Made by a program: the position numbers and the translations under genes. The notes below the pieces were generated by a model, which did no database searches, was not told the DNA's origin, and saw only the letters and a program-made list of their open reading frames with translations. From positions 150,286 through 214,285 of the forward strand of contig CBDETH010000008.1 of assembly GCA_965242885.1 (NCBI GenBank): a DNA stretch of 64,000 nucleotides, read 5' to 3'. This document shows positions 50,298-57,558 of the stretch, in pieces. Each line of letters begins with the position of its first letter. Position 1 is the stretch's first letter. Source of the DNA: a bacterium. GTDB taxonomy: Bacteria; JAAXHH01.

Positions 50298-50648
50298 ATG
50301 TCCTTTCCCGACAAAACGATTCGCTCGAACACACGGCCGGCGGCGCGCCTGGAAGCACTACGCGACTGGGTGCTCGCCCGCTGCATCGCGCTTTTCACCG
50401 CTCTACCGGGCTCGAAGCATGAGCCGGAGAAAGTCAAAATGCCCGAAAACATCTCAGTCTGGATCGTCGTCATCGGCGTCCTGACAGCACTCTGGATTTT
50501 CATCTTCAAGTTCATCGCTCCCTTTGTCGACCGCATGACCATGCGCGAGGTCCGCCTGTCGAAGATCGAACGGGACATCGAGAACCTGACCGCCAAGATC
50601 GATCTGATCTACGAGGTCGTGCTCGACCGGCACAGGGAGCAGGAATGA
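50298..50648 (+). CDS. Small membrane protein (one TM plus C-terminal coiled coil; holin/spanin-like?)
   Basis: Hydrophobic stretch ISVWIVVIGVLTALWIFIF and heptad-like C-terminus. Confidence 0.4.
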   Translation: MSFPDKTIRSNTRPAARLEALRDWVLARCIALFTALPGSKHEPEKVKMPENISVWIVVIGVLTALWIFIFKFIAPFVDRMTMREVRLSKIERDIENLTAKIDLIYEVVLDRHREQE

Positions 50649-50751
50649 TGGGGCATCGGCAACCGTATCGTTCACCGCAGTACACAAAGGTCTTCCCTCT
50701 CCGAAGTCTGCGCCCCTCGACGCCGGGGAGGGAAGACAAGGAGGTTTACAC

Positions 50752-51132
50752 ATGAAATCATGGCCGTATTTCCCGAACCAGGTCCTTTCCTCGCCGGACA
50801 CCGGCCGGCACGAAATGGACGAGCGCTTCATGCTCCGGCTCGTGCTGCTGCGCCAGGAGCTCGGTTTCCCGCTCATCATCACCTCGGCGTACAGGTCGCC
50901 GGCGCACAACGCGAAGGTGGGGGGCCGTCCCCGTTCTGCGCACCAGGCCGGCCGGGCCGTGGACATCGCCATCTCGGGCGACAAGGCGCACCGGCTCGTT
51001 CGCATGGCGCTCCTATTCGGTTTCACCGGTATCGGCATCCGGCAGCGGGGAGACTTCCGAAGCCGCTACGTGCACCTCGACGATCTCGACAAGGCGCCGG
51101 GCATACCCCGTCCGGCAATATGGAGCTATTGA
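50752..51132 (+). CDS. Peptidase M15_3-family zinc D-Ala-D-Ala carboxypeptidase-fold protein (phage endolysin-like / YcbK-like)
   Basis: SAYRSPAHNAKVGG…SAHQAGRAVDI (H-x6-D) and a distal YVHLD His. Confidence 0.7.
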   Translation: MKSWPYFPNQVLSSPDTGRHEMDERFMLRLVLLRQELGFPLIITSAYRSPAHNAKVGGRPRSAHQAGRAVDIAISGDKAHRLVRMALLFGFTGIGIRQRGDFRSRYVHLDDLDKAPGIPRPAIWSY

Positions 51133-56641: not shown

Positions 56642-56730
56642 CATTTCGGCAGGATCCACATCCCGGGAACCGCAAAGCCCGGGAATCGCGAAGCACCAGG
56701 GTTTCCATTAACCGTAGAAAGGAGCAAGTC

Positions 56731-57558
56731 ATGTTCAGGATGTTTTTAACCGTTGCGATGCTGGCGGCACTCATCACACCAGGCGCACAGGCCGCAGTCA
56801 TGAATGAAGACGCGTTCGCCGGACCGTTCGCCGTACCGGCCTCCGACCAGGCGACGCCGACGCTGGGGACCATCCCGGCGCAGGCCGTATCGATCTGCTG
56901 TGAGCTCGAGCTGGACCTGTCCACCTACGTCACCGGCACGATCGGCACGCTTGAGTTCAGTGCGTCTACGCCGGACACGAATGTGGCGACGGTGAGCGTG
57001 AGCGATAGTAAGCTTACGATCACTGCCGTAGCGGAAGGCCAGGCGCAGATCACGGTGAAGCTGGGACAAACGATACGCACCAACTTTACGGTCACCGTGC
57101 AGGCCAGTCCCTGGTCGGTGTCGGACGCCGGCAACGTCTACCGGCTCGAAGGCAACGTGGGCATCGGCGTGGCCAACCCGGACGAGCGGCTTGTCGTGGA
57201 CGGCCGCATCAAGGCCGAGGAGATCCACATGGATGAAGTCACGCCCGCCGACTACGTCTTCGACGAGGACTACGACCTCATGTCCCTGGACGCGTTGAAA
57301 GCGTTTGTACAGCACCATGGCCATCTGCCGGGCATCGCCCCGGGCGCACAGATGGAAGCCGAAGGCGTCAGCGTCGGCCGGATGCAGACCCGGCTGCTGG
57401 AGAAGGTGGAGGAACTGATGCTCTATACCATCGACCAGCACAGGACGCTTTCTTCCCAGCGCAAGGTGATCGACGCGCAGGGACAGCAGCTTGCCAGGCA
57501 AGAACGATACATAGAATCGCTTGAGCAGCGGCTGTCAAAGCTGGATAAGCGTCATTGA
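56731..57558 (+). CDS. Secreted protein with a Big_2-like domain and the same tail-fibre-like C-terminal module as the giant protein (paralogous C-terminus)
   Basis: AAGGAG RBS then MFRMFLTVAMLAALITPGAQA signal; the C-terminal ~150 aa align residue-for-residue with the C-terminus of 51182..56641 (…YRLEGNVGIGV…LVVDG.IKAE…HGHLPG…GRMQT.LLEK.EEL…). Confidence 0.65.
   Translation: MFRMFLTVAMLAALITPGAQAAVMNEDAFAGPFAVPASDQATPTLGTIPAQAVSICCELELDLSTYVTGTIGTLEFSASTPDTNVATVSVSDSKLTITAVAEGQAQITVKLGQTIRTNFTVTVQASPWSVSDAGNVYRLEGNVGIGVANPDERLVVDGRIKAEEIHMDEVTPADYVFDEDYDLMSLDALKAFVQHHGHLPGIAPGAQMEAEGVSVGRMQTRLLEKVEELMLYTIDQHRTLSSQRKVIDAQGQQLARQERYIESLEQRLSKLDKRH

Follow-up and report, generated by a model that had tools for sequence, protein, structure and literature searches.

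Prophage-type lysis genes adjoining fibre and Rhs genes: a possible co-option in an uncultivated bacterial lineage

The lysis-type genes and their secreted neighbours

Here we describe a locus in which genes for a small membrane protein and an M15 peptidase directly precede genes for a giant repeat protein, a smaller secreted protein and an Rhs/YD-repeat protein. It lies in a 64,000-nt stretch of bacterial DNA (contig CBDETH010000008.1, positions 150,286 to 214,285), which we refer to in full as the window and whose own numbering is used throughout. A first-pass annotation of positions 50298-57558 had described four open reading frames (ORFs), coding for a membrane/coiled-coil protein, a 126-aa Peptidase_M15_3 protein and secreted proteins of 1,819 and 275 aa, and all four are present as described. 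The locus exceeds this interval on both sides, taking in a Zn-ribbon gene, a promoter and a leader element upstream, and a second leader copy and an Rhs/YD gene downstream; the Zn-ribbon gene, the Rhs/YD gene and the twice-present leader of ~140 nt had been overlooked by that annotation. The features, with the evidence for each in parentheses, are as follows.

49703..50032, forward strand: Zn-ribbon protein, 109 aa (ORF; a 109-aa orthologue is called in contig L002)
50125..50153, forward strand: sigma-70-type promoter, TTGACA-17-TATAGT (11/12 consensus matches)
50160..50300, forward strand: leader element, copy 1 (alignment, fold energy, covariation, covariance model)
50439..50648, forward strand: small membrane protein, 69-aa core (69-aa orthologues; prophage homologue)
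50752..51132, forward strand: Peptidase_M15_3 protein, 126 aa, predicted endolysin type (Pfam and PHROG)
51182..56641, forward strand: giant secreted protein, 1,819 aa (ORF, Pfam, repeat motif)
56183..56638, forward strand: C-terminal module of the giant protein (BLASTP and multiple alignment)
56731..57558, forward strand: small secreted protein, probably 275 aa, with its C-terminal module at 57103-57555 (ORF, BLASTP, AlphaFold2 model)
57583..57735, forward strand: leader element, copy 2 (core match and covariance model)
57733..64000, forward strand: giant Rhs/YD-repeat protein, >2,045 aa, running off the window end (open frame, Pfam)

Neighbouring genes of the locus are separated by 50-100 nt, and terminator prediction gave none between the M15, giant and small fibre genes. 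Phage structural genes were absent among the window ORFs tested, as the first-pass annotation had also held.

The M15 gene product is a predicted peptidoglycan peptidase of the endolysin type. It matches Pfam Peptidase_M15_3 (PF08291) with E=3e-17 and 63.1 bits against a cut-off of 23.2, as well as the PHROG endolysin family phrog_894 (E=8e-26). The metal-ligand motifs SAHxxGxAVD and VHLD are intact, SAHQAGRAVD aligning with the corresponding motif of 1LBU, and VHLD, VHVD or VHID is present in all orthologues (6/6). The first-pass annotation had raised the question of whether this protein carries a signal peptide: its N-terminus, MKSWPYFPNQVLSSPDTGRHEMDERF, shows neither a hydrophobic leader nor a signal peptide.

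The ORF of the membrane protein spans 50298-50648 (116 aa), and its conserved core comprises the final 69 aa, from ATG 50439. This is the length at which the protein is called in the related contigs L002, L086 and L089, and a prophage homologue described below is similar (76 aa); the 47 codons 5' of ATG 50439, in frame from ATG 50298, show little conservation and are broken up in L086. The core carries a transmembrane (TM) segment, MPENISVWIVVIGVLTALWIFIFKFIAPF, near its N-terminus, followed by a charged helical tail, and its gene ends 103 nt 5' of the M15 gene. The membrane protein has no Pfam match; among PHROG families it matches phrog_1009 (unknown function, E=5e-4) and, weakly, the holin family phrog_1296 (E=2e-3).

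To judge by sequence, the membrane protein and M15 genes are phage lysis-cassette genes by descent. A sister genome contains an intact-looking Mu-like prophage (L082) with small and large terminase, portal, Mu F and capsid genes; its M15 protein is 73% identical to that of the window, and 5' of it a gene encodes a 76-aa protein homologous to the membrane protein (50% identity, E=5e-26). Further M15 homologues, at 56, 55, 44 and 40% identity, all reside in phage contigs, and one distant phage (L142) has a GTA_holin_3TM gene directly upstream of M15. The prophage pair and the phage-borne distant M15 genes together indicate that the pair is phage-derived and exists independently of the giant genes. 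The first-pass description of the two as lysis-cassette genes thus gains a phage source, and its supposition that they are tied to the giant genes must in part be given up, the pair being conserved in phages without such genes. In the prophage a further gene (L082 9504-10004) separates the membrane-protein gene from M15; its 166-aa product has two TM segments towards the C-terminus and matches phrog_1544, a family of unknown function. We considered this protein as a relative of GTA_holin_3TM, an assignment left unsupported by the lack of a Pfam match and of BLASTP similarity to the L142 holin. At the corresponding place L089 has an unrelated 82-aa ORF.

The giant protein has a signal-peptide-like N-terminus, 17 Ig/cadherin-like repeats and the C-terminal module that it shares with the small protein. 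Pfam assigns it eleven Big_9 matches, Big_2 and Cadherin_4, and the motif FSDPDGDxL occurs 17 times with a period of 90-103 aa, bearing out the earlier count of ~17 cadherin-like repeats. Within its gene, positions 52226-53273 form a 270-nt tandem repeat (3.9 copies, 86% identity), which indicates recent expansion of the Ig-like repeats. The ORF of the small protein, 56638-57558, is 306 aa long, and translation probably begins with MFRMFL (56731), for a length of 275 aa; the protein has a signal-peptide-like N-terminus and one Ig-like domain, with a weak, below-cut-off Big_2 match (E=2e-4). The Rhs/YD gene matches RHS_repeat (PF05593, E=8e-18) and DUF6443 and has a signal-peptide-like segment from M 57865. 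Its full-length orthologues are 2,606 aa (L002) and 2,633 aa (L089), both with TEN_YD-shell.

Conserved linkage and a repeated leader RNA

The order membrane protein, M15 and directly adjoining giant gene is found in six contigs (the window, L002, L089, L112, L086 and L087). The first four share one upstream context, L089 and L112 being of the L002 type, and L086 and L087 represent two others, making three contexts in total: of these last two, one has a two-component system upstream of the lysis genes, whereas the other has a LexA-like/AbiEii region. The LexA-like (Peptidase_S24) gene is that of L087 (6666-7280), just 5' of the genes for the Zn-ribbon, membrane, M15 and giant proteins, and suggests that control may in some genomes be of the SOS or prophage type. 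On the 3.5-Mb contig L002 the order is esterase, Zn-ribbon, 69-aa protein, M15, proteins of 1,911 and 274 aa, the 2,606-aa Rhs protein, a 236-aa ORF and another Rhs gene. In this part of L002 (16824-25736) the Rhs gene ends in a DUF5675 region, the 236-aa ORF that follows is possibly an immunity gene, and the second Rhs is a fragment, a layout typical of an Rhs array with orphan toxin modules. The large and small fibre genes are kept as a pair in L001, L002, L088 and L089, the orthologue of the small gene following the large one, and L001, a metagenome-assembled genome (MAG) labelled Gemmatimonadetes at NCBI, has the order large, small, Rhs. The closest labelled relative of the lineage is a Gemmatimonadota MAG. 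In L089 (4027-11212) the giant gene is broken into three ORFs of 351, 1,658 and 403 aa, by pseudogenisation or assembly frameshifts.

Both lysis-type genes are, by their substitution patterns, under purifying selection. For the membrane protein the ratio of nonsynonymous to synonymous substitution rates (dN/dS) is 0.05-0.23; M15, compared at dS up to ~1, has 0.10-0.19.

Both hexamers of the promoter at 50125-50153 are conserved in L002, L089 and L087. Between the Zn-ribbon stop codon and this promoter lies a perfect tandem repeat (50048-50086, 15 bp x2.6), whose copy number differs in L002. The Zn-ribbon protein contains two ribbons of the CxxC...CxxC type and has orthologues in L002, L086, L087, L089 and L112. 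It returned no significant Pfam or PHROG family, the DUF6011 match of 23 bits being below cut-off. Its N-terminal half resembles, by eye, a 64-aa protein encoded 2.5 kb upstream in the L082 prophage, and phmmer at E<=1e-5 did not recover that protein. Identification of the Zn-ribbon protein as Com or Q was unsupported: the strongest Zn_ribbon_Com (PF10122) match, given by the L087 orthologue alone, had E=1.

The leader element that follows the promoter is ~140 nt long. Its core, CATCAGAATACCCTCGCGTCCC...GGACCCGCACCCCGCGGACC...GCGTCCCCGTGC, is almost invariant among loci whose M15 genes show dS of about 1, and the leader is conserved far better than coding DNA. Copy 1 consists of a 5' hairpin, the core, an 11-bp GC-rich hairpin and U6, in the manner of an intrinsic terminator, and then ATG 50298; its minimum free energy is -54.5 kcal/mol (z=-3.7), and the 5' hairpin covaries. 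A covariance model scored copy 1 at 153 bits and copy 2 at 132 bits. Copy 2 has one mismatch in the 19-nt core, for which 0.01 matches are expected by chance. Its terminal hairpin has no U-tract, and the 3' arm of this hairpin, GGCAGGGGA, lies 7 nt before ATG 57733 and is likely the ribosome-binding site for that start codon, with the hairpin covering it. In L001, L002 and L089, too, Rhs is preceded by such a copy, and the start codon assigned to it there by gene callers is the corresponding ATG. A third copy in L086 (9004-9140) lies upstream of an uncalled Zn-ribbon gene, suggesting that the regulator gene may share leader control.

Twelve leader copies are known. They precede the membrane-protein gene and Rhs, and in L086 the Zn-ribbon gene as well. 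The covariance model revealed no further copies, and none in prophage L082 or in the fibre-only locus L088. Nor did the leader have an Rfam match, and a scan of viral sequences returned none. Exact matches to the 20-nt leader core numbered 39 in metagenomes; those in L111 and L112 alone are genuine, the others being due to chance in GC-rich DNA. The leader common to both is the strongest argument for a possible co-regulation of lysis genes and toxin gene.

The remainder of the window holds metabolic genes and a low-GC defence island (26388-39548, GC 0.41-0.58). The island contains the Type I restriction-modification genes HsdR, HsdS and HsdM, an AAA_15/AAA_21 ATPase, a DUF4143 ATPase, RmuC fused to Big_2, a HEPN protein and a GmrSD_N nuclease. 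A perfect tandem repeat (49269-49336, 23 bp x3) directly follows the esterase gene.

The shared C-terminal module

The last ~150 aa of the giant and small proteins, which the first-pass annotation had recognised as a common module, match each other by BLASTP with E=1e-55 and are 56% identical in a multiple alignment. The module is made up of one fibre-shaft beta unit (GNVGIG..P..KLVV), an unannotated helical cap (PADYVFE...HGHLPG...LLEKIEEL) and a long coiled-coil helix, and no Pfam family covers it. In an AlphaFold2 monomer model of the small protein's module (predicted local distance difference test score, pLDDT, of 91) short strands are followed by three short helices and a 60-residue helix. 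Text searches on the motif strings found nothing relevant.

A profile search for module relatives, exhaustive over representative proteins, matched 127,119 proteins at a threshold of E<=1e-3, of which 23,700 reached E<=1e-30. Many of these matches are due to the GNVGIG..P..KL.V unit, which is repeated 20-78 times in giant proteins, several of which have a full-module match at their C-terminal end. Patterns specific to the cap matched at least 600 genomic stretches in species-representative genomes, at least 553 of them confirmed. The motif LLEKVEE was present in 86 of 112 sampled relatives, always 16-58 residues from the C-terminus, and 70 of 82 complete relatives have a signal-peptide-like N-terminus. 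In viral data, tblastn of the module against 50,697 sequenced phages returned nothing, and the module occurred in 12 of 2.9 million IMG/VR contigs. Three of the proteins concerned have signal-peptide-like N-termini and look cellular rather than viral, and in nine contigs the helical cap terminates long fibre-like proteins without signal peptides; PHROG scans of the neighbours of the module genes in two viral contigs gave no structural annotation. The module thus abounds in secreted proteins of cells, whereas viral contigs rarely have it. Among viral structures the best match is the uncharacterised BFVD entry A0A5J6VKV2 (E=2e-3, with 30% identity over 104 aligned columns); it comes from a Megaviridae environmental sample and suggests that the cap may also occur in giant viruses.

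The proposed likeness of the module to phage tail fibres stands in part. The module family profile matches the Bdellovibrio MAT fibres 8ond (Bd2133; E=2.7e-21), 8ojn (1.4e-10), 8oml (2.4e-9) and 8ol4 (6e-7), some family members bear T4 gp36 or gp34 tail-fibre domains, and the IMG/VR fibres described above carry the cap. The MAT match runs through the shaft unit, of which the window proteins hold one, and these alone score E=0.05. The module does not, on the other hand, correspond to a recognised phage trimerisation domain. Foldseek with the module gave no significant match, the top ones (MyRF ICA, MAT fibres and viral S74 proteins) covering the beta unit only, and the helical part had no significant sequence or fold match.

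We considered and rejected a Peptidase_S74/ICA identity. PF13884 was detected at E<=1 in 0/114 members, in place of SDxxxK the two window proteins have PADYVFE and the family has [AP]DYVFE, and 7dc3 aligns to the beta unit only (sequence E=0.74, Foldseek E=1.3). The cap appears to be a positional replacement of the S74 chaperone of phage-type fibres. It is likely an oligomerisation cap, and we infer a trimeric state.

Interpretation and comparison with known systems

We tentatively read the locus as a lineage-specific co-option of prophage lysis genes, which head a fibre/Rhs operon in a manner resembling type 10 secretion systems (T10SSs), and give this reading somewhat less than an even chance. 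The gene content suggests that a phage-style breach of the cell wall may serve to get huge proteins out. From the conserved linkage, the purifying selection and the leader common to the Rhs gene we infer that the hydrolase may be used for export or release, as the first-pass annotation had proposed. In such a scheme a locus-encoded factor, most plausibly the Zn-ribbon protein, would act on the leader RNA, relieving termination before the lysis genes and unmasking the Rhs ribosome-binding site, so that all units would be switched on together; the leader would thereby gate the lysis and fibre genes at the level of transcription and Rhs at that of translation. The membrane protein would give the signal-less M15 protein access to peptidoglycan. 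A local or lethal breach, following a T10SS-like or Shiga-toxin-like logic, would then allow the very large proteins to pass from the periplasm to the cell surface or into the medium. The two fibre proteins could oligomerise, possibly mutually, via the C-terminal beta unit, helical cap and coiled coil. That all of this forms one self-contained release system, with a Zn-ribbon RNA-binding regulator and leader switches, a two-gene wall-breaching device, cargo and an unclassified cap replacing S74, we regard as unlikely.

Several observations weigh against the co-option reading. The arrangement, whose conservation in related genomes the first-pass annotation had proposed to check, is kept in the six contigs and three contexts; M15 was found within 10 kb of module genes at 0/79 distant loci, mostly Bacteroidota, leading us to reject a general linkage of module-bearing fibre genes to M15, and L088, from the genome that carries prophage L082, has a module pair of 404 and 272 aa without M15, membrane protein or Rhs. 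All M15-linked loci belong to one narrow lineage, and their order could reflect inheritance and not function. The giant, small and Rhs proteins all have predicted Sec-type N-termini and would need no lysis to exit the cytoplasm. The label 'holin-like' for the membrane protein reflects its topology and the weak phrog_1296 match. The 166-aa two-TM protein of the prophage is missing from the window and all fibre-linked loci, and because a distant phage has GTA_holin_3TM at this place, a canonical holin may have been lost from the locus. No spanin genes were seen by PHROG scans or by ORF inspection, which showed no additional ORF between or after the membrane-protein and M15 genes and included no dedicated lipobox search. 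The Zn-ribbon protein, finally, is a candidate regulator of the locus whose role is a guess because it has no significant family match.

Many of these points would be expected if the lysis genes were a historical neighbour, that is, if a prophage had integrated or decayed beside the fibre/Rhs locus and its lysis genes were kept for an unrelated reason, such as a part in cell-wall turnover generally or, near defence islands, in abortive infection or suicide, the adjacency being inherited. The independent occurrence of the lysis pair in phages, the distant module loci and L088 without M15, the Sec signals of the cargo and the absence of a putative holin partner all agree with such a history, as do the defence genes near the locus in the window and L087. 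It accounts less well for lysis genes that stand in one order right next to the giant gene in each of three upstream contexts, for operon-like spacing with no predicted terminator, and for one leader type standing before both the lysis genes and Rhs and absent from the prophage. We consider this history somewhat unlikely. Another history, in which the locus is the remnant of a toxin-converting phage, with the fibre and Rhs genes as morons in a prophage late operon, much as stx lies behind pR'/tR', and the structural genes since deleted, would explain why the succession of regulator, promoter, terminator-ended leader, lysis genes and long genes mirrors the plan of a lambdoid late operon, and why the helical cap is found on viral fibre-like proteins. 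That remnant we judge very unlikely, given that the giant genes have signal peptides and orthologues at the non-phage site L088, that the ~20 kb examined of L082, the only related intact prophage, lacked the leader and any detected module-bearing gene, that no integrase or att-like features were seen, and that morons are seldom as large as this insert of ~15 kb.

The linkage, selection and co-regulation evidence that speaks for co-option applies equally to a non-lytic aid to assembly, in which M15 would open a local peptidoglycan gap for the 1,819-aa fibre and the >2,000-aa Rhs protein and the cell would survive. Other envelope-spanning machines use specialised peptidoglycan hydrolases. Sec would already bring the cargo to the periplasm, leaving only the wall and the outer membrane to be passed, and the absence of spanins fits. 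We nevertheless rate such an aid as quite improbable, since M15 lacks a signal peptide and is most closely related to bona fide phage endolysins, nothing in the sequence provides a means of limiting M15 activity, and the locus encodes no outer-membrane component.

The fibre-like cargo is best compared with the MAT (mosaic adhesive trimer) fibres of Bdellovibrio bacteriovorus. These have in common a beta-rich domain of ~130 aa that follows the signal peptide (PMC10769870) and that is not evident in the window proteins. In common with these fibres (PMC10769870; PDB 8ond, 8ojn, 8oml and 8ol4), the window proteins are secreted cellular proteins built from phage-fibre-like parts, and their GNVGIG..P..KL.V shaft unit is homologous at the level of the family profile (E=2.7e-21 to 6e-7). 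Unlike them, the window proteins begin with Ig-like repeats, have a single shaft unit and Ig/cadherin-like stalks and not a trimeric beta-helix, and end in cap plus coiled coil, whereas MAT C-termini are S74 or varied tips. As in the S74 ICA proteins of phage fibres, tailspikes and MyRF, the cap directly follows the last GNVGIG-type beta unit at the fibre C-terminus; it differs from them in the change of SDxxxK to [AP]DYVFE and in its complete lack of PF13884 matches. The locus thus fails to qualify for membership of either the MAT or the S74 group.

For its control we see a resemblance to the lambdoid late operon (Q, pR', tR', lysis genes and embedded stx) and to Com/mom of phage Mu. Here too a gene for a small Zn-binding protein, a strong promoter, a terminator-ended leader, lysis genes and long genes follow one another, and a hairpin would mask the ribosome-binding site of a downstream gene, as with mom. 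The Zn-ribbon protein differs from Com and Q in belonging to no detectable family, and RNA binding and antitermination by it are proposals made here.

The T10SSs offer the closest parallel to the locus as a whole. These systems derive from phage lysis cassettes, and some are embedded in operons for Tc toxins of the Rhs family; holin/endolysin/spanin clusters such as Serratia ChiWXYZ and HolA-PepB-Rz/Rz1 of Yersinia entomophaga are examples (PMC10847048), and a T10SS precedent is also given in PMC13284979. The present locus differs in its Sec-type cargo, its merely putative holin, its phylum, and a Zn-ribbon gene and repeated RNA leader in place of the known regulators; it falls outside strict T10SS membership because spanins are missing and the dependence of its cargo on the lysis genes is hypothetical. 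It agrees with T10SSs in having phage-derived lysis genes outside a prophage, an endolysin without signal peptide next to a small membrane protein, and adjoining very large exported proteins that include a toxin of the Rhs/YD-shell family. The locus has as by-products yielded a very widespread C-terminal fibre cap domain without a Pfam family and a compact candidate regulatory RNA. If the coupling is functional, the reuse of lysis cassettes for very large toxins reaches an uncultivated lineage of a distant phylum, and the T10SS idea, known mainly from Enterobacterales, extends to Sec cargo and to a minimal, spanin-free form.

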